A model generated the notes under the pieces. That model had not been told where the DNA came from, made no database searches, and worked only from the letters and a program-made list of their open reading frames with translations. 8,074 nt of DNA, from the IMG/VR virus record IMGVR_UViG_2537561710_000018, one strand, 5' to 3'. Shown here in pieces: positions 20 through 7,327 of this stretch. The translations under genes were made by a program, and so were the position numbers. The stretch comes from a virus. Taxonomy: Duplodnaviria > Heunggongvirae > Uroviricota > Caudoviricetes. How positions within the stretch are numbered: the stretch's first letter is position 1; each line of letters begins with the position of its first letter.

Positions 20-574
20 TCAAAAAGCAATAACTTTTTTCTCTATACCAAAAGCCATAACCATTGGTTTGTACAAAATAAATTCTGCCACCTTTAGCCA
101 ATGCTCAATGCGTCTTTCACAGGTTCTTAAACTCCATTCCGGATGTGCATCATTCAGCAGTTCAGCCATTTTGCGCTTAGTCATCCCCCGCCCCACATAA
201 CGCTGACTCAGAACATTGAGCAGCCCGGGATAACCTGCCAGTACTTCACCAATAACCCTGTCGATTATTAACGCCTCTGAATCGGTACAATGCACCAGCC
301 AGCTTTTTTGCTTGCCGTTGATCATATCCCGCAAAAAAGCCTCAAGTTTAGGTTTGTCCAGACCTGCTTTTTTCATCCTCCGGAGCGCCTCGTTAATTGC
401 CGTTTTTGTCAGCTTTTTAGAGGTCAGCAACTGGTTGAACATATTTCCCGTCTTACCGCCGCCAATATACGACCAGCGCCCCCACATACGTAGTTTCCCC
501 TGAATCCAGACACTTTCCAGCGTGGTGAGACGAAGGTGCTCTCCGCTTTTTCCTGTGTTCGTTGGGTAAATCAT
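20..574 (-). CDS. Putative late-gene antitermination protein Q (QuuD/PF06530-like), 184 aa; start taken at the internal ATG 572-574 that overlaps the upstream stop (ATGA) rather than the ORF-track start at 694
   Basis: Last gene of a ybcN-like/ybcO-like/Q-like minus-strand string, as in DLP12. Recalled QuuD-like motifs are present: LRMWGRWS (cf. LERWGAWA), LLTSK (cf. LITSK), DSEALII (cf. DDDAMII), YVGRGMT (cf. YVVGMTF). Comparison is from memory, not alignment. Confidence 0.6.
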   Translation of the reverse strand: MIYPTNTGKSGEHLRLTTLESVWIQGKLRMWGRWSYIGGGKTGNMFNQLLTSKKLTKTAINEALRRMKKAGLDKPKLEAFLRDMINGKQKSWLVHCTDSEALIIDRVIGEVLAGYPGLLNVLSQRYVGRGMTKRKMAELLNDAHPEWSLRTCERRIEHWLKVAEFILYKPMVMAFGIEKKVIAF

Positions 575-861
575 AAATAACCGTCCTTTCTCCAGATCTC
601 TTGTGTGCGAAAAACACCTTCTGCATGCATCAGGCGCAATTCTTCTTTGGTGTAATCGCTGGTTTTTACTCTCCCGTCGATTAAATCGTGGCATGAGTTA
701 CAGGCAATCGCTGCCTGCATATCGTGTGGCTTTATCGCTGTTCCGCACGTTCCCGCCAGCCTGTAATGCGCCAGCACAGAGGTTTCGGGATTGTGATTGC
801 AGTAGCCAGGGATTCTGATCTGGCATATCTGGCCTTTAGCCGCTTTACGTAAATTCACCAT
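571..861 (-). CDS. YbcO-like DUF1364 prophage protein (putative Cys/His metal-binding nuclease), 96 aa
   Basis: 96-aa ORF with Cys/His-rich sequence (CNHNPE, CGTAIKPHD, CNSCHD) recalled as matching E. coli DLP12 YbcO. Start ATG overlaps the upstream stop (TAATG at 859-863); stop overlaps the downstream start (ATGA). Confidence 0.6.
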   Translation of the reverse strand: MVNLRKAAKGQICQIRIPGYCNHNPETSVLAHYRLAGTCGTAIKPHDMQAAIACNSCHDLIDGRVKTSDYTKEELRLMHAEGVFRTQEIWRKDGYL

Positions 862-1460
862 TACGCAAACTCCAGTAGTTGTGCGGCCACATTTTCAACT
901 TCCTCCTGAGAGGAGAATTTACGGAACAGAATCCAGTTCCACAGCACATTCAGTACAGATTTATAAACCTGCTGAAACTCGACTTCGTCCATATTCGCAA
1001 AAGCGATGGATTTTGCCCGACGCCCACGGCTACCGTCCGGATAAATATGCTCGGTGTAAAATCCGGCCTGAATGGTTACCCACTCGCGGAAAGCCTCAAA
1101 CGACTTTAGCAACGCCGTATCCCGGGTTCTACGAGTCGCAACGGTGTTAAGGTATTGCTCTGCGGCATCACTCAGGGCTGGCGTGTGTTCCCGACCAACT
1201 GATTCGCACAGGTAATCAACGAAACCAGACAGCAGTTCTCGTTCGCGAGGCGTGATCGCCCCACCGACCGGAGTCCAGTAATCGAATCCCAGTTGCAGGA
1301 GTTTGAAAAAACGCTTGTGGAATGCGTAGTTACGCACACGCTTAAAATCTGCGTGTATCCACTCACCTATTTTGATTTGATGCAGAAAATCGCAACTCTC
1401 CGGCGTCGCCGGGAGAAGTAAACCAGAAGAAGTTTGTTTGACCAGTTGTATATGCGCCAT
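861..1460 (-). CDS. YbcN-like DUF1367 prophage protein, 199 aa
   Basis: Long ORF with E. coli-like composition, translationally coupled to the YbcO-like gene; N-terminus MAHIQLVKQ and gene order match the lambdoid nin region. Family assignment from memory. Confidence 0.5.
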   Translation of the reverse strand: MAHIQLVKQTSSGLLLPATPESCDFLHQIKIGEWIHADFKRVRNYAFHKRFFKLLQLGFDYWTPVGGAITPRERELLSGFVDYLCESVGREHTPALSDAAEQYLNTVATRRTRDTALLKSFEAFREWVTIQAGFYTEHIYPDGSRGRRAKSIAFANMDEVEFQQVYKSVLNVLWNWILFRKFSSQEEVENVAAQLLEFA

Positions 1461-1879
1461 TTCTCAATCTCTCGATGGCGCAGTGCAGCAGATGCCAGTT
1501 GTTCAAGCTAGCACGCAAATTGTAAACCAGAATGCCAGGAAAAAACAAAACCCGCCGAAGCTGGTTGTGTGCGGTTGCGTTGAAGTCTCCTAGCCAAAGA
1601 GTAGCGGTGACCACTCCCCGCCGATAATCTTAGTTGTTTAATTTCGTAAGCTAACTAGGCTAAAAGCTCTCTGTTGTCTGCCTGTTGTACAATTAACAAA
1701 ATGAACAACGAACTAGATATACCAACGCCAGAATGGTGCAACAAATCCCAAACAACACAGCAATGCAACAATAACATATGTTATTTTCCTCTCACGGGAT
1801 TCAGTCCTGAATTCTCATAAAGCTAATCTTTTTTTAAAAACATACTGTTAGATCACATGCACTTTCTTTCTTAACATCG

Positions 1880-1907
1880 TTGACTTCGCATGCGAAGCGT
1901 TTAAAAT
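1880..1907 (+). promoter_or_regulatory. Candidate sigma70 promoter of the GHKL operon with a palindromic operator-like site
   Basis: TTGACT (1880-1885), 16-nt spacer, TAAAAT (1902-1907), about 50 nt upstream of the ATG at 1960. Perfect 14-bp palindrome CTTCGCATGCGAAG (1884-1897) lies in the spacer. GAGAG Shine-Dalgarno-like element at 1950-1954. Confidence 0.4.
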
Positions 1908-1959
1908 CAACAATTTGCACTTAAGGTATTTATTTTCCCAAACACATAGAGAGTAAATT

Positions 1960-3351
1960 ATGACTGAGAACACGACTCCAACAGCAGACTTTAGTCCTAG
2001 TAAAAGATTTTTTGTAAGTATGCTAACTCGAGATATCGACTTAAACGATGCCATACTTGATCTGCTTGATAACTGCGTCGATGGGGCTTTACGTACAATA
2101 AAAGACACAAAAAAAACTTCAAAACCATATGAAGGATTTTATGCGAAACTTACGATTAATAAAGATGTCTTTATTATAGAAGACAATTGCGGAGGTATCC
2201 CTAAAAGCTTCCGAGAATATGCTTTTAAAATGGGACGACCCCATCAAAAAGAAGAAGAAAATGAAGGCACCGTTGGCGTCTATGGTATTGGTATGAAAAG
2301 AGCCATTTTTAAAATGGGTAGAGATTGCTCAATACAATCGAATAATCCCGATGGCGCATTCACTGTAGATATAACACCTGATTGGATCGATGGTGATGGT
2401 TGGAAAATACCGATGCACGAGAGTGACTATGATAACAAAAATCCAACAGGCACAACTATAGAGATAAAAAAACTCCATTCTAATGTGGCACAAAAATTTA
2501 ATGAGAGCACATATCTTACTGATCTCTTTTTACAGATAAAACACTCATTGTCATTTATTATTCAAAAAGGATTTAAAATAGAATTAAATGGAGTTGTTGT
2601 TGAACATAATCCGATTAACATCATAACTGATCATTCTAAAATAGAACCATACATATATAAAGCTAAAATAGACGATGTTGATATCGATTTAGTTGTTGGC
2701 TTCTATAAAAATTTAGAAGATGACAATGATGATGTTTTAGAAAAAAGGAGTTCTGATGATGCTGGATGGACTGTCATTTGCAATGACCGCGTTGTTCTAT
2801 ATTGTGATAAGACACATCTCACAGGTTGGGGCTTTGCTAATGTACCAAGGTTTCATACCCAATTTATAGCAATTTCTGGGGTTGTTCGCTTTACCAGTAA
2901 AAACCCAGAAAAATTACCAATAACAACAACGAAACGAGGTGTCGATCTTAGTTCTACATTGTACAATGATGTACGAAATAAAATGATTGAAGGGATGATG
3001 CATTTTATTCGATTCACCAATCAGTGGAAAGGTGAGCATCTTGAAGAAGGGAAAAAATTACTTAAGTCAGCTCAGTCACATGAAGCTCAATCTTTATTTG
3101 AAATTACCCCACAATCAACTCCAGAAGATAAAAAAAATAACTGGTCCAACCCTAATAGAAACAAAAATGAGTGGCGATATACACCTAAGCTGCCTACCCC
3201 AGTAAAAAAAAGCTCTACTGTACGAATAATCTTCACCAGAGAGAAAGAAGATGTTAAAATTTTATCTAAATATTTCTTTGGACATGAAGATGCTAGCGCT
3301 TCTGATGTGGGGATGCAATGCTTTGATACGGTGATTGAAGAGGTGAAGTGA
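1960..3351 (+). CDS. GHKL-superfamily ATPase, MORC/Hsp90/MutL-like (Bergerat fold), 463 aa
   Basis: N-box DLLDNCVDG (2059-2085) matches ExxxNxxDA/G. G1 box EDNCGG (2179-2196) matches DxGxG. G2 box GVYGIGMK (2275-2298) matches GxxGxG. All in the canonical order and spacing within the first 115 residues. Confidence 0.8.
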   Translation: MTENTTPTADFSPSKRFFVSMLTRDIDLNDAILDLLDNCVDGALRTIKDTKKTSKPYEGFYAKLTINKDVFIIEDNCGGIPKSFREYAFKMGRPHQKEEENEGTVGVYGIGMKRAIFKMGRDCSIQSNNPDGAFTVDITPDWIDGDGWKIPMHESDYDNKNPTGTTIEIKKLHSNVAQKFNESTYLTDLFLQIKHSLSFIIQKGFKIELNGVVVEHNPINIITDHSKIEPYIYKAKIDDVDIDLVVGFYKNLEDDNDDVLEKRSSDDAGWTVICNDRVVLYCDKTHLTGWGFANVPRFHTQFIAISGVVRFTSKNPEKLPITTTKRGVDLSSTLYNDVRNKMIEGMMHFIRFTNQWKGEHLEEGKKLLKSAQSHEAQSLFEITPQSTPEDKKNNWSNPNRNKNEWRYTPKLPTPVKKSSTVRIIFTREKEDVKILSKYFFGHEDASASDVGMQCFDTVIEEVK

Positions 3352-4340
3352 TGTCTGGACAATACATTCCCTATCACTTAAGGCATAATAAGTCTATTGA
3401 TAGAGAGATTTTTCTCGAAAGCCTAAACCTCTTAAGCAAAAGACTAAATATTCAAGAATATACATATATAGGTTTTGGTGGTCCGATGCTTGAAGATTTT
3501 AGAATCATGCATAATCGTATCGCTCTTTCTGATATGATTTCTCTCGAAGAACAAGAGTCTACTCACATCAGACAAAAATATAATTTGCCTTATAATTGTA
3601 TTGATTGTAAGCTAATATCAGCTCATGACTTTATTCTTGATTATAGTTTTTCTAAACCATCAATAACATGGTTAGACTATGCCTCCCCGAAAAAAATACA
3701 AACGGATCTAGATGATATACACTTACTAAGTACTAAAGTAAGCTCTTTTGATATTTTGAAGGTCACCTTCCCCATAAATCCTAGTTCTTATTACCAACGT
3801 AGAGTTGGAGAAAGTTTAGATATTTTTAAAGAAGCTTTTATTAATTCATTAAAATCATTGCTTGGGAAAAAGTATCTTGATTTTAATCTTCAGATATCAA
3901 ATGCAGATCTTTCAGATCGTAAGATTAAAGCTCTTTTAATACGAATTATTACAAACGCTTTTAGATCAGCAATAGAACGTGGTCTTTCAGGACGTAAGGA
4001 TAAGATTCAGTATTACCCATTATCCTTAAATCAATATAATGATGGCAGTCATACCATGTTGACAATATCAGGTTTTTTCTCCTCAGAACAAGAATATATA
4101 GAGTTATCTAAGGCATGCGACCTTTCTAACTGGCAATTTTATTCAACAAATTGGGAAGACGTGCAAGAAATAGCAATACCAACACTAACAATTAAAGAAA
4201 AGATAAATTTAGATAGTAAACTGCCTGATAAAGAAGCATATCAGGCAGCCGCTGAAGAGTTCTCTTTAAACGAAAATGAACGGGATAACTATTATAAATA
4301 CTATAGGTTATACCCTAACTTCCAAAGAATTATGGTTTAA
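3351..4340 (+). CDS. Uncharacterised partner protein of the GHKL ATPase, 329 aa (candidate effector or specificity subunit)
   Basis: ATG at 3351 overlaps the upstream TGA (TGATG) with GAGGTG 6 nt upstream, indicating translational coupling. Same AT-rich codon usage as the ATPase gene. No nuclease or methyltransferase motif recognised; a glycine-rich IGFGGP segment lies near the N-terminus. Confidence 0.7.
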   Translation: MSGQYIPYHLRHNKSIDREIFLESLNLLSKRLNIQEYTYIGFGGPMLEDFRIMHNRIALSDMISLEEQESTHIRQKYNLPYNCIDCKLISAHDFILDYSFSKPSITWLDYASPKKIQTDLDDIHLLSTKVSSFDILKVTFPINPSSYYQRRVGESLDIFKEAFINSLKSLLGKKYLDFNLQISNADLSDRKIKALLIRIITNAFRSAIERGLSGRKDKIQYYPLSLNQYNDGSHTMLTISGFFSSEQEYIELSKACDLSNWQFYSTNWEDVQEIAIPTLTIKEKINLDSKLPDKEAYQAAAEEFSLNENERDNYYKYYRLYPNFQRIMV

Positions 4341-5459
4341 ATATTCGGGCTGTACTCTTTTATTTAATAAATTGTACAGCCCCTTTAATATATATTCAGC
4401 AACTATTGGTGACACGCTATTTCCTATTTGTCTGAAACTATGCCATTTAGTTACATGAAAGCGAAACCAATCAGGGAAGCCTTGTAATCTAGCAGCTTCT
4501 CTTGGTGTAATCACTCTTGGATGATAAGGGTGGATCGGCCTGACGGCTTGAAAGCTTCCTTTATCTCTAGCGGTTCCCGCCCTTAAAGTCGGGCAAAAAC
4601 CATTTGGATCTAATCTTGTAGATCTTGAAATTTTATCAGTTTCCCCAAAAGATAAGGAAGCATAACGCTCTTGGACGATTTTGCTATGTAATGTTCCGGT
4701 ACATCCAGATATGATATTATTTTTTAACTTAGCGATCGATTCTGTATCACCAACATTCCGAGGGATCTGCCCCCATAATTTTTCATAAAATCCCCCTTTT
4801 CGATCTTTTTTAATTGTTCGCCAACTCTCAGAGTCTGATTGCCAATTGGCATCGATAATATCTGGTAATCCATACAAAGCATCTTTTACAGTAACCGGAT
4901 CAATCATTTTAGGCATAAATACTTCATCTGAAATATCAAGCTTCAATGATTTTTTTACACCGATAAAAAAATATCTAGTTCGAATAGTTGGAGCACCATA
5001 ATCAGATGCTTTTACCTTGATGGGATCAAGAATATCATAATCACCGCTAACCAAATTAAATGCTTTATTTCTAATGCCAGAATATTTCTCTTGCATAATA
5101 CCTGGAACATTTTCTGCCAAAAAGAATAATGGCTGTAATTCTGATACTAAACGGTAGAAATGCATGTAAAGCTGATTCCTGCTATCATCAGGATTCCCCT
5201 TGCCTATTGAACTAAATCCTTGGCACGGAGGACCGCCAATAATACCATCTATGGGCATATCGTTTTTAAAAAAACCCTTAATTATTTCTGCATTTAGTAA
5301 AGAAACATCTTCTTGGACGTGCAAACTTCTTGGAAAATTAATTGCGTGAGTATTAATAGCATGTTGATCAATTTCAACTGCCATTTTAACATCAAATCCA
5401 GCACGTGCAGCACCAAGACTTAGACCTCCAACGCCAGAAAACAAATCTATTACATTCAT
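4308..5459 (-). CDS. DNA (cytosine-5)-methyltransferase, 383 aa
   Basis: Motif I DLFSGVGG (5424-5447), motif IV GGPPCQGF with catalytic Cys (PPCQ at 5220-5231), motif VI ENV (5106-5114), a variable TRD-like region, motif IX RVITPREAARLQGFPDWF and motif X GNSV, all in canonical C5-MTase order. Confidence 0.9.
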   Translation of the reverse strand: MNVIDLFSGVGGLSLGAARAGFDVKMAVEIDQHAINTHAINFPRSLHVQEDVSLLNAEIIKGFFKNDMPIDGIIGGPPCQGFSSIGKGNPDDSRNQLYMHFYRLVSELQPLFFLAENVPGIMQEKYSGIRNKAFNLVSGDYDILDPIKVKASDYGAPTIRTRYFFIGVKKSLKLDISDEVFMPKMIDPVTVKDALYGLPDIIDANWQSDSESWRTIKKDRKGGFYEKLWGQIPRNVGDTESIAKLKNNIISGCTGTLHSKIVQERYASLSFGETDKISRSTRLDPNGFCPTLRAGTARDKGSFQAVRPIHPYHPRVITPREAARLQGFPDWFRFHVTKWHSFRQIGNSVSPIVAEYILKGLYNLLNKRVQPEYLNHNSLEVRV

Positions 5460-5483
5460 ATAGTTGCAACGTCTCTTATTAGT

Positions 5484-5500
5484 TTCTATGTATTATAACA
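5484..5500 (-). promoter_or_regulatory. Candidate extended -10 promoter of the methyltransferase gene
   Basis: Minus strand reads TGTTATAAT (TGnTATAAT; hexamer at 5492-5497, TG at 5499-5500), about 30 nt upstream of the ATG at 5459. The -35 is weak (TAAAAC/TTAAAA). Confidence 0.4.
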
Positions 5501-5721
5501 CAACTGTTCTTGATGTTTTAACCCCATAAGATAACCTCATAAAGGCTATCCCTTGAAAATACCGGATCGCATAAATTTAATCTTTCAAAACTACTTGTCT
5601 ATTAATCGAGCAATTTAAGGTTGTTTTAGTCATGTCGATACCGACATAGTTAACTAAACCCATTTCATCGTCCAACAAATGGGGGTAATACACTTTGATT
5701 TATAGTCGGGTGGGTTTTTCT

Positions 5722-5757
5722 CTATCTGCCTTTGGTGTTCATGCCCAAGGCAGATAG
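5722..5757. repeat. Perfect 11-bp inverted repeat (CTATCTGCCTT, 14-nt spacer, AAGGCAGATAG)
   Basis: Arms at 5722-5732 and 5747-5757 are exact reverse complements. Located in the non-coding region at the right-hand composition transition of the island. No adjacent U-run on either strand, so not a classical intrinsic terminator. Confidence 0.5.
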
Positions 5758-5890
5758 CCTCAAGCACCCGCAGCAATTCTACTTAACTATCCTTTTCCCG
5801 CAAACCGTTTTTATCCCCAGCGGCAAATCGAATACACCACCAGCGCCACCGCCATCGCAATTCCTACCGTTGTGAATGCTTCAGGCCAGG

Positions 5891-6448
5891 TCATTGATTC
5901 ACCTCCTGCGGCGGTTCTGGTAGCGACATCCAGTGGGTTGCTTGCCTAAGATCATTACCCGGACTAACTGCTATACCTCCGCGCCGGAACGTGCCTCCGA
6001 GATAGCGTGCGGAATATATTAATGGCCCAGCCTCGCTATCGATATTCATCGAAATAAGCACGTTCTGGCTCTTTTCAGGCATTCGCTCAGTACAGCTTAT
6101 CCAGCCATCCAGAGTTATCGGAGATCTGGTTGACGTTTCCGAGATTTCCCGAAAATTGTTGGTTGACGAATTCTTATTTTCCCGAAAGTTTCCGGCCTGA
6201 AGCATGGCGACGCGGCAGGCGTTCCAGCCATCAGCATATGTTTTAGTTACACCGTCGAGATGGCAGGTAAGCAAATCCATTTCATCAGGCACTACCATTG
6301 CTATCGGCTCTGCTTCCAGTGATGCCAGCGCGATACGAAACACATTAGCCAGCAGGCTGTCTGAAGACTTGTTATCGTGCGCCGAGTCGCTCAGGAAGCC
6401 TGTGATGTATGATTTAATCTCCGCGCGTTCTCTGGTAATAGTGCTCAT
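5891..6448 (-). CDS. DUF551-like prophage protein, 185 aa
   Basis: C-terminal ATHWMSLPEPP resembles the conserved THWMPLPEPP tail recalled for DUF551 prophage proteins. E. coli-like composition; tightly packed with the upstream gene (2-nt gap). Confidence 0.55.
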   Translation of the reverse strand: MSTITRERAEIKSYITGFLSDSAHDNKSSDSLLANVFRIALASLEAEPIAMVVPDEMDLLTCHLDGVTKTYADGWNACRVAMLQAGNFRENKNSSTNNFREISETSTRSPITLDGWISCTERMPEKSQNVLISMNIDSEAGPLIYSARYLGGTFRRGGIAVSPGNDLRQATHWMSLPEPPQEVNQ

Positions 6449-6449
6449 A

Positions 6450-6668
6450 TCAGTTTTCCTTATACGGATTAATTTTATTGTGCAGTGCGCTGAATGATTC
6501 CCATGTCACATCGGTATATAGCTCAATAACTGGTTCAAATGTCCTTCCAATTATCCAGACCAGTAATAGCGGGGATATCGGTATCATCAACACTATAAAC
6601 AGAATGAAAAACAGAAACTCTGTTGTTCTGCTCTTTCGTGGGTAATTTTTTTCTAAATAATGTTTCAT
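6450..6668 (-). CDS. Small hydrophobic (predicted membrane) prophage protein, 72 aa
   Basis: ORF contains a long hydrophobic stretch (FLFFILFIVLMIPISPLLLVWIIG) consistent with a transmembrane helix; stop is 2 nt from the downstream gene start. Function unknown. Confidence 0.4.
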   Translation of the reverse strand: MKHYLEKNYPRKSRTTEFLFFILFIVLMIPISPLLLVWIIGRTFEPVIELYTDVTWESFSALHNKINPYKEN

Positions 6669-6674
6669 TTCTTA

Positions 6675-6690
6675 CCGCCCTTTCGGGCGG
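6675..6690. repeat. GC-rich hairpin (CCGCCC-TTTC-GGGCGG) just upstream of the small membrane protein start codon
   Basis: 6-bp GC stem with 4-nt loop; on the minus strand it ends 6 nt before the ATG at 6668-6666. No U-run follows on either strand. Confidence 0.4.
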
Positions 6691-6795
6691 CCTCCTGATG
6701 TTCTGAGGGTGCAGGAATCCCTCCGGTTAAGGATTTAATAAAAATCGTTTCTGATTTAAATCTTCAGTATTTAGTTGTTAGTTGGTTTATCGCCT

Positions 6796-7107
6796 TTATG
6801 CTTCAGCCTTATTTCGCAACCAGACACAAACCGGGCCATCTTCCGTATCATGAATGGAACCAATAAACCAGCCATCGCCCTCTGGTCGTTCCGGTTCCCA
6901 TGCAGAAATATCAGCATCACACGCATCAAGGTCAGCACATCCTTCATCTCTGAAGCAGAGGACGTATTGAAGATTATTTTCCTCCATCCAGGCGTTAAAC
7001 TCTTCCGTTGAAATATATTCCCGACCATCACAGAATTTTTCATATTCAGGATGTGTCCAGTAGCCATATCCGTCACGAACTACCGGCATTTCTTTAATTT
7101 CACTCAC
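6796..7107 (-). CDS. Highly acidic, Trp-rich small prophage protein, 103 aa, function unknown
   Basis: GTG start at 7105-7107 preceded by AGGAGG with 6-nt spacing. About 25 Asp/Glu against about 8 Lys/Arg by my count. Chosen over the overlapping 6771-7076 ORF because of the Shine-Dalgarno element and protein-like composition. Confidence 0.5.
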   Translation of the reverse strand: MSEIKEMPVVRDGYGYWTHPEYEKFCDGREYISTEEFNAWMEENNLQYVLCFRDEGCADLDACDADISAWEPERPEGDGWFIGSIHDTEDGPVCVWLRNKAEA

Positions 7108-7327
7108 TGTTAACCTCCTGCAACGCTACACGATACGCCTTCTTTATCCACGCCTTACTGCCATATAATTTCGTCTTCATAATAAACACACCTGCACGAC
7201 TCGCCGATATCCCCGGACAGGTTAACAGCACAGCATCCACCACACGGTTATGCTTCCGAAACTCCATTACAGTACTGCTGATAACCACCTGCCCCACCGG
7301 GCCGTAATCCTGATACAGGATTTTCAC
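7100..7327 (-). CDS. Hypothetical small prophage protein, 75 aa
   Basis: GTG start at 7325-7327 overlaps the upstream stop (GTGA), suggesting translational coupling; stop overlaps the downstream start region. No recognisable motif. Confidence 0.35.
   Translation of the reverse strand: MKILYQDYGPVGQVVISSTVMEFRKHNRVVDAVLLTCPGISASRAGVFIMKTKLYGSKAWIKKAYRVALQEVNSE

Follow-up and report, generated by a model that had tools for sequence, protein, structure and literature searches.

A Rac-like lambdoid prophage of enterohaemorrhagic Escherichia coli (EHEC), represented here by an 8,074-nt stretch of DNA (the window) from the IMG/VR virus record IMGVR_UViG_2537561710_000018 (Caudoviricetes), carries in its nin region a low-GC island with a cassette of three genes. 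They code for a predicted ATPase of the GHKL superfamily, a partner protein with a predicted class-I S-adenosylmethionine (SAM)-methyltransferase fold, and a C5 cytosine DNA methylase. As documented below, the three genes are a self-contained, horizontally mobile cassette, which probably constitutes a restriction-modification (R-M)-like immunity module of the paraMORC type, present here as a prophage moron. The main components of the locus are the following (positions are those of the window):

1650-5750, no strand: low-GC island with the three-gene cassette, in the nin region of the Rac-like lambdoid prophage (composition profile)
1960-3351, plus strand: predicted GHKL ATPase, 463 amino acids (aa), paraMORC-like, with a middle (transducer-like) domain and a family-specific C-terminal extension (open reading frame (ORF), Pfam, AlphaFold2 (AF2) model, conservation)
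3351-4340, plus strand: partner, 329 aa, predicted class-I SAM-methyltransferase fold (Pfam PF20553, Methyltransf_35, E value 2e-89)
4308-5459, minus strand: C5 cytosine DNA methyltransferase, 383 aa, convergent with the partner gene (PF00145, E value 2.6e-61)

The island has a GC content of 31-38%, compared with 45-52% in its flanks. The stop codon of the ATPase gene and the start codon of the partner gene overlap in a TGATG (3349-3353), by which the two genes are predicted to be translationally coupled, and the partner and methylase genes overlap tail-to-tail by 33 nt at their 3' ends. The ATPase is assigned to PHROG 20521 (function unknown). Public annotation already labels it 'ATP-binding' with HATPase_c_3, so the observation of the motifs alone is routine; the interest lies in an uncharacterised, widespread, hotspot-borne cassette rather than in the ATPase motifs themselves.

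A sequence-only reading of the window had recognised, between 2059 and 2298, a complete Bergerat-fold ATP-binding signature in the 463-aa protein, had considered the latter to be probably a molecular switch or clamp that depends on ATP, and not a histidine kinase, and had proposed a search with the Pfam HATPase_c families and a structure prediction as checks. Codon counting confirmed the coordinates of its three motifs (the first three lines below) and the residue numbers of N38 and D75. The conservation of residues was counted over 84 homologs taken from 80 genomic loci:

2059-2085, plus strand: motif I (N-box) D34-L-L-D37-N38-C-V-D41-G42, with two acids and the putative Mg-coordinating Asn; D34, D37, N38 and D41 in 84/84
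2179-2196, plus strand: motif II (G1 box) E74-D75-N-C-G78-G79; D75 and G79 in 84/84, N76 and C77 in 83/84, G78 in 82/84
2275-2298, plus strand: motif III (G2 box) G106-V-Y-G109-I-G111-M-K113, of the MORC/Hsp90-like form GxxGxGxK; G106, G109 and G111 in 84/84
2449-2466, plus strand: motif IV G164-T165-T-I-E-I, beyond the span first described; G164 in 82/84, T165 in 83/84; within strand 165-172 of the model
2779-2862, plus strand: family-specific invariant polar cluster C274, N275, D276, R277 ... D283 ... H299, Q301 of the middle domain; N275, R277 and H299 in 84/84, the rest in 79-83/84
2923-2940, plus strand: T322-T-T-K325-R-G loop with a candidate gamma-phosphate-sensing lysine; K325 in 84/84

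The signature is complete in the sense that every motif is there, and it departs from the textbook form at two points: the first acid of the N-box (the position of GyrB E42 and MutL E29) is Asp, never the catalytic Glu, in all 84 homologs, and the G1 box reads D-N-C-G-G (DxxGG) instead of DxGxG. A low-probability hhalign alignment sets the N-box on E42-V-V-D45-N46-A-I-D49 of GyrB, and the family profile, compared with the PDB, puts the G2 box stretch onto MORC3 and MORC4. The invariant second acid, D37, would fit the mechanism with two acids that recent work (PMC13614785) describes for MutL and GyrB.

Both proposed checks favoured membership of the GHKL superfamily. HATPase_c_3 (PF13589) matches aa 28-132 with an E value of 2.9e-9 and 37.5 bits, above its gathering cut-off of 25. 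The AF2 model (mean predicted local distance difference test score, pLDDT, 82.1; predicted template modelling score, pTM, 0.74; 35-sequence alignment as input) found GHKL neighbours when compared by Foldseek with the PDB, namely Hsp90, TRAP1, GRP94, the ATPase domain of ParE, SMCHD1 (6mw7) and MORC2 (9cdh), with E values from 5e-14 to ~1e-11 and a probability of 1.0. Together with the key residues conserved in 84/84, the profile and the model identify the 463-aa protein as a GHKL (Bergerat-fold) ATPase, predicted to bind and hydrolyse ATP. The Foldseek alignments span ~390-450 columns and thus extend over the Bergerat domain and the predicted middle domain that comes after it. Judging from sequence and model, the protein probably belongs to the group of GHKL proteins with a middle (transducer) domain, which comprises Hsp90, GyrB/ParE, MutL, MORC and SMCHD1.

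This placement bears on the possibility, which we practically dismiss, that the protein is an atypical two-component sensor histidine kinase. The generic HATPase_c model does give a weak match (E value 0.004, 17.9 bits), which is below its cut-off, and a related cassette was once called two-component-like (PMC8011034); however, the structural neighbours Hsp90, ParE, MORC and SMCHD1 are aligned through the middle domain, and the downstream gene codes for a protein with a predicted methyltransferase fold. No HisKA or dimerization and histidine phosphotransfer (DHp) domain, H-box or Response_reg domain was found in the ATPase or its neighbours, as the sequence-only reading had noted for the H-box and the receiver; all NCBIfam matches of the ATPase are negligible, the only one to a histidine kinase being DpiB with 16 bits against a cut-off of 656. 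Since profile, conservation and fold fit a GHKL domain joined to a middle domain, and DHp, H-box and receiver were all undetected, the class of switches and clamps is supported, and the protein would best be explained as an ATP-driven dimerising switch or clamp.

In the model, the loop with K325 (2932-2934) follows strand 305-312 and precedes the long helix 333-355. Its TTTK pattern resembles S-S-Q335-T-K337...S-S of GyrB, and by analogy K325 is a candidate phosphate-sensing lysine, like K337 in the QTK loop of GyrB and K307 of MutL. When the family profile was aligned by hhalign with the N-terminal fragments of E. coli MutL and GyrB, only motifs I-II were aligned, with ~1% probability. A PDB search with the single ATPase sequence gave no match, and one with the family profile gave only MORC3 and MORC4, at a marginal E value of ~0.03. 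The S5 signature of MORC proteins (GhXhhpXXRhl) is not conserved among the 84 homologs; the nearest stretch, G289-W-G-F-A-N-V-P-R297-F-H, is a partial fit in E. coli, with position 297 being R in 42/84 and position 4 being E in the family consensus. Identity as MutL was considered and rejected: no MutL model of Pfam or NCBIfam matched, and the hhalign alignment with E. coli MutL covered 20 columns at a probability of 1%.

The family is large and uniform in architecture. A word-indexed search found >5,430 homologs of the ATPase, with lengths of ~460-490 aa throughout the 120 matches listed, and when 1.84 billion cluster representatives were searched exhaustively with a profile, 1,030 clusters were obtained at E<=1e-30; the family thus comprises at least 1,030 50%-identity clusters across bacteria, and is present in at least one archaeal metagenome-assembled genome. 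Fusions were sought as a clue to an effector or an interaction, and none was found for the ATPase, whose full-length representatives measure 456-512 aa, or for the partner, of which all 120 homologs among the matches listed measure 322-336 aa.

The assignment of the partner rests on the Pfam match and on three positions:

3471-3485, plus strand: motif I G41-F-G43-G44-P45, the putative SAM-binding glycine loop after strand 1 (sequence, model, conservation)
3546-3548, plus strand: E66 at the end of strand 2; invariant in 76/76; strand 61-66 in the model
3675-3680, plus strand: D109-Y110 at the end of strand 4, in the position of motif IV; D109 in 76/76, Y or F at 110 in 75/76; strand 104-109

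An acid ending strand 2 is the usual ribose-binding acid of class-I methyltransferases. With a Rossmann-like fold in which motif I, the acid of strand 2 and motif IV at strand 4 are all present, the partner is, judging from sequence and model, a protein of the class-I SAM-methyltransferase fold, predicted to bind SAM. PF20553 bears the name 'putative O-methyltransferase'; none of our results backs the 'O-'. A protein of this kind could itself be the toxic component of an abortive infection system: the ATPase would sense infection or unmarked DNA and switch on the partner as a methyltransferase acting on rRNA, tRNA or another essential target, and the infected cell would stop growing. We consider such a scheme quite unlikely.

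The catalytic motif of the third component can be read from the translation:

5220-5237, minus strand: catalytic motif G-G-P-P-C79-Q of the methylase, DNA GGCGGTCCTCCGTGCCAA

A protein near-identical to the methylase (E value 1.3e-254 over aa 1-367) is present in the PDB as entry 3G7U, so a crystal structure of one component of the cassette already exists; the entry was deposited as 'cytosine-specific methyltransferase'. With respect to what defines an R-M system, a modification methyltransferase is present (PF00145, GGPPCQ) and a nuclease domain was detected neither by sequence nor by fold. At two of the loci compared (L048, 679-2328, and L070, 6274-7935) the methylase is read as a 676-aa ORF, the two conserved halves of which (query aa 3-121 and 141-370) are split by ~200 extra in-frame residues.

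The linkage of the three genes is conserved far beyond E. coli. The 80 loci code for ATPase relatives of 42-47% identity from >15 phyla, and their sources include cyanobacteria, Latescibacterota, Chloroflexota, Acidobacteriota, Planctomycetota, Firmicutes, Proteobacteria and a Methanoregulaceae archaeon. The partner gene lies directly downstream of the ATPase gene in 76 of them, and a homolog of the C5 methylase adjoins the ATPase gene in ~70. The usual layouts are an operon in the order methylase (Dcm), ATPase (GHKL), partner (MT35), or the convergent arrangement of E. coli.

Clustering of the flanking ORFs of these loci, with a scan of 120 flanking proteins, revealed only two further recurrent families: Vsr (28 loci), found on either side and either strand of the trio, and endonuclease III / HhH-GPD proteins (7 loci). 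Genes of other kinds (Type I R-M, MADS, AriA-like, GajB-like, HNH) are scattered and inconsistent. C5 methylases are commonly accompanied by Vsr and HhH-GPD proteins for the repair of deamination damage, and the MutL protein of E. coli assists Vsr. The ATPase, with the partner, might accordingly be seen as a MutL-like accessory of very-short-patch (VSP) or mismatch repair, acting on the T:G lesions that arise by deamination of the 5-methylcytosine made by the linked methylase; both recurrent families would suit such a role, and the parallel with MutL and VSP repair was drawn by Iyer et al. (2008; PMC2292703). However, most loci, the window included, are devoid of Vsr, and since this gene is absent from most loci and occurs on either side and strand, it tracks the methylase and not the ATPase. 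Moreover, seven loci have the ATPase-partner pair with no linked methylase at all, and the ATPase has neither the C-terminal domain of MutL nor a match to the MutL family, which makes a role in repair very improbable.

The mobility of the cassette is evident from its carriers, which are of four kinds: the nin region of lambdoid prophages, P2-like prophages, a Pf filamentous prophage and a Tn7-like element. The lambdoid version is present at an identity of at least 99% in 173 of 5426 complete E. coli genomes (~3%), mostly EHEC O157:H7 and O111; according to the annotation of NZ_AP018802, the integrase of this Rac-like EHEC prophage adjoins ttcA. A divergent E. coli version (identity of 41% for the ATPase, 34% for the partner and 64% for the methylase) fills the interval between gpQ (the portal gene) and gpA of P2-like prophages, which is the validated old/tin anti-phage hotspot (Rousset et al. 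2022). An entry in Table S5A of that study may represent the same protein family as our loci L085-L088, to which it is identical in Pfam content and position. No mention of HATPase, GHKL, cytosine or Dcm was found in the main text of Rousset et al. (2022), and the systems reported there as cloned from the P2 hotspot do not include this cassette. In Vibrio cholerae (L089-L091) the trio stands directly beside TnsC-TnsD-TnsE of a Tn7-like element, and in the Pseudomonas Pf prophage PfAC20 (L084) it occupies the accessory end (280-3711). A megablast search of phage genomes gave no match, and a search of phages at the protein level found one Pf phage.

These contexts also bear on the idea that the module only modifies DNA. 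Both methyltransferase-fold proteins would then act on the DNA of the element, with the ATPase as their loader or processivity clamp, so that the element would be protected from host restriction or would receive an epigenetic mark, and nothing would be restricted. The arrangement of the island argues against this, since transcription of the ATPase and partner genes comes from a separate side of the island and runs counter to the phage operons, as in a moron expressed in the lysogen; it is the methylase gene that runs with the phage's own genes. Furthermore, conservation of the trio is just as strong where it is Tn7 cargo or sits at chromosomal sites outside phages, the P2 old/tin defence hotspot is filled by it, and ATP-driven clamps have no known role in simple methylation. 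A purely modifying module is consequently unlikely.

In E. coli O157:H7 F6294 (L092, NZ_CP038372; 5261-7400, corresponding to ~3720-5760 of the window) a single natural deletion has removed both the methylase gene and the 3' two-thirds of the partner gene; the ATPase gene is undamaged, as is the flanking prophage DNA. This is the sole genome of the 173 in which coverage of the cassette is below 80%, and the event, a single case, fits the logic of R-M systems, in which the modification gene is lost only along with the restriction function.

The cassette shares its logic with several described systems and differs from all of them in make-up, having no PF19191, a SAM-methyltransferase-fold partner, and no recognisable nuclease or helicase. 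A close parallel is with the MORC and paraMORC proteins described by Iyer, Abhiman and Aravind (2008; PMC2292703). These ATPases, which combine GHKL and S5 domains, are encoded in R-M operons alongside C5 methylases and Vsr; it was proposed that they loop or reorganise DNA between the sites of recognition and cleavage. The ATPase described here resembles paraMORC in its N-terminal GHKL domain with intact motifs I-IV, its predicted middle domain, a conserved basic residue, its sporadic spread over distant phyla, as lateral transfer predicts, and its linkage to C5 methylases (~70/80 loci) and Vsr (28/80); a conserved C-terminal extension is shared with paraMORC1. Unlike the MORC and paraMORC proteins of that account, it has no conserved S5 signature, and its operon has no SFII helicase, restriction-fold, HNH, TIR or other effector; in addition, its partner has a class-I methyltransferase fold, of which we found no mention in the consulted part of PMC2292703.

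Two further cassettes are similar in content. HEF_HK (PF19191) and Response_reg_2 (PF19192) form cassettes linked to C5 methylases (Bellieny-Rabelo et al. 2021, PMC8011034), and like the trio they consist of a HATPase_c_3 protein with an uncharacterised C-terminal part, a small Rossmann-like partner and a C5 methylase, and are located on mobile elements; the partner described here, however, has a SAM-methyltransferase fold and is not receiver-like. The HEF_HK cassette was itself rejected as an identification, with PF19191 undetected in the ATPase even at E<=10 on C-terminal fragments. The 'Kinase-methylase' unknown system of Rousset et al. (2022, Table S6) is composed of HATPase_c_3, TadZ_N, DNA_methylase and GIY-YIG; in contrast to its Vibrio example, our cassette has no GIY-YIG nuclease. 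Experimental precedent comes from paraMORC3, or Shedu type I-D (VcSduA), whose defence against phage is ATPase-dependent and is abolished by the motif mutant E27A (PMC12137116). VcSduA is likewise a GHKL ATPase with motifs I-IV, and a model shows it as an intertwined dimer whose middle domain is clamp-like (PMC12137116), but it has a DUF4263 PD-(D/E)xK nuclease as a fused domain and acts on its own, whereas the ATPase described here has no recognisable nuclease and is tied to two methyltransferase-fold genes.

As a compact mobile unit with a convergent or co-operonic methylase, often accompanied by Vsr, the trio is comparable with classical Type II R-M systems with a C5 methylase, although it has no recognisable endonuclease and its non-methylase half consists of an ATPase and a predicted SAM-binding protein. 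Lastly, it recalls the eukaryotic chromatin ATPases: MORC2 and SMCHD1 are among the structural neighbours of the model, MORC3 and MORC4 are the only PDB profile matches, and eukaryotic MORC and SMCHD1 are functionally tied to DNA cytosine methylation. The CW, coiled-coil and SMC-hinge domains of the eukaryotic proteins are, however, absent here, and the similarity in sequence is marginal, as given above.

Taking into account the conserved trio, its carriers and these precedents, we propose the following scheme for the R-M-like immunity module. The C5 methylase would mark target sites on the resident DNA, and the ATPase and the SAM-binding partner would form a complex which examines DNA for these marks. 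On unmarked DNA, the binding of ATP (N38 to Mg, D75 to adenine, with the G2 box as a lid) would close an ATPase dimer at its N-terminal gate, the active site would be completed by K325 of the middle domain, and the closed complex would block or damage the incoming DNA. A more specific version holds that this immunity is nuclease-free and keyed to methylation: a MORC-like clamp with a methyltransferase-fold reader would neutralise DNA lacking the 5-methylcytosine of the cassette and would do so without cutting it, through entrapment or compaction, a block of replication or transcription, or poisoning methylation. We give this version an outside chance.

Several observations weigh against an immunity function of the R-M type. 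The partner contains no nuclease, helicase or other known effector domain that could be found from its sequence and fold, Pfam searches with aa 191-463 of the ATPase and with C-terminal fragments gave no match even at E<=10, so that no effector domain is seen there either, and no nuclease or helicase is conserved beside the trio according to the clustering of flanking ORFs in the 80 loci. With Asp as the first catalytic acid, the turnover of the ATPase may be slow or atypical. In seven cyanobacterial loci (L003, L008, L011, L014, L031, L041, L055) the ATPase and partner genes have housekeeping flanks and no linked methylase, which sits uneasily with an obligatory R-M logic, unless a methylase is encoded elsewhere in these genomes, and four others (L030, L042, L067, L069) have the ATPase and the methylase without the partner. 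The P2 hotspot also holds cargo unrelated to defence, such as partition systems and toxins (Rousset et al. 2022), so location there is not in itself a proof. PADLOC gave no match to the ATPase or the partner, whether from the window, the P2-like prophages or Vibrio, and no experimental test of the cassette was found in the literature searched. With these points included, an immunity module remains the explanation that we hold to be probable.

Currently, tools for finding defence systems treat the cassette as an 'orphan' or 'incomplete' R-M methylase; the authors who described PfAC20, using PADLOC, thus scored it as an incomplete R-M system, with the methylase only (PMC11878078). A literature search found nothing on Methyltransf_35/PF20553, or on GHKL/HATPase_c_3 proteins with a cytosine methyltransferase, as anti-phage defence. 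Should the trio prove to be an immunity system, it would contribute a family in which the half other than the methylase lacks a recognisable nuclease; it would then be relevant to the way in which methylation-keyed systems such as BREX halt phage with no obvious cleavage of DNA, and would offer an experimentally tractable bacterial model of MORC-type ATPases working with cytosine methylation. If in addition it acts without a nuclease, it would be a prokaryotic counterpart, and possibly a forerunner, of the eukaryotic axis of silencing by MORC and DNA methylation. The function is directly testable because the cassette is ~4 kb in size, resides in a standard E. coli background and offers clear point mutants.

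Some of the related loci contain additional copies of the components. Two paralogous GHKL ATPases are encoded at several loci (L006, 5593-7206; L077, ~6318-7265; L020, downstream on the minus strand), and L052 has a complete second ATPase-partner pair (10963-13177), inverted, around one Vsr gene; these paralogs hint at heterodimeric ATPases or at tandem systems that share one methylase. In V. cholerae the trio is followed by a fourth gene (8256-10088), which codes for a second HATPase_c_3 protein of 610 aa, 24% identical to the ATPase of the window over aa 17-342; its aa 422-512 show a weak match to PD-Lambda-5_A of PADLOC (E value 1.6e-5), and in that variant it may take the place of the effector that is otherwise missing. 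The 13.6-kb prophage PfAC20 has a second, short annotated 'DNA cytosine methyltransferase' (ORF9, 5438-6082). For the Pf ATPase, PADLOC gave a marginal match to MzaB (E value 0.001), and the MZA system was rejected as an identification for the window ATPase (NF041932, 12.4 bits against a cut-off of 850). Among the cyanobacterial loci, three of those without a methylase have the pair between a GH31 glycosidase and an ABC transporter, and the four without a partner share a conserved CinA-AroQ-MiaE-GNAT context; both sub-patterns look vertically inherited.

Candidate promoters precede both transcription units of the cassette:

1880-1907, plus strand: promoter-like site TTGACT-16-TAAAAT, 53 nt upstream of the start codon of the ATPase gene (consensus scan, 10/12; weak, as shuffling predicts at least as many such sites in the region)
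5492-5521, minus strand: promoter-like site TTAAAA-18-TATAAT with an extended TG, upstream of the methylase gene (consensus scan only)

Scans of the window for repeats, tRNA genes and Rfam families gave nothing relevant. Just beyond the stop codon of the partner gene, inside the 3' coding region of the methylase gene, lies a hairpin with 14-nt arms (GGGCTGTACTCTTT ... AAATTGTACAGCCC, 4347-4382), which could be a bidirectional terminator or a site controlling convergent transcription. The right edge of the island is occupied by a near-perfect inverted repeat (5722-5757; 14-nt arms, 8-nt loop), near terminator-like matches at 5707-5731. To the right of it, a DUF551 ORF of 185 aa (5891-6448, minus strand) is represented in RefSeq only by an 81-aa C-terminal fragment (L001, 19192-19437), the choice of start being different. 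A second dip in GC content (38%, at 6401-6800) coincides with an ORF for 72 aa (6450-6668, minus strand) with the strongly hydrophobic centre FLFFILFIVLMIPISPLLLVWIIG, which may be another small membrane-protein moron.

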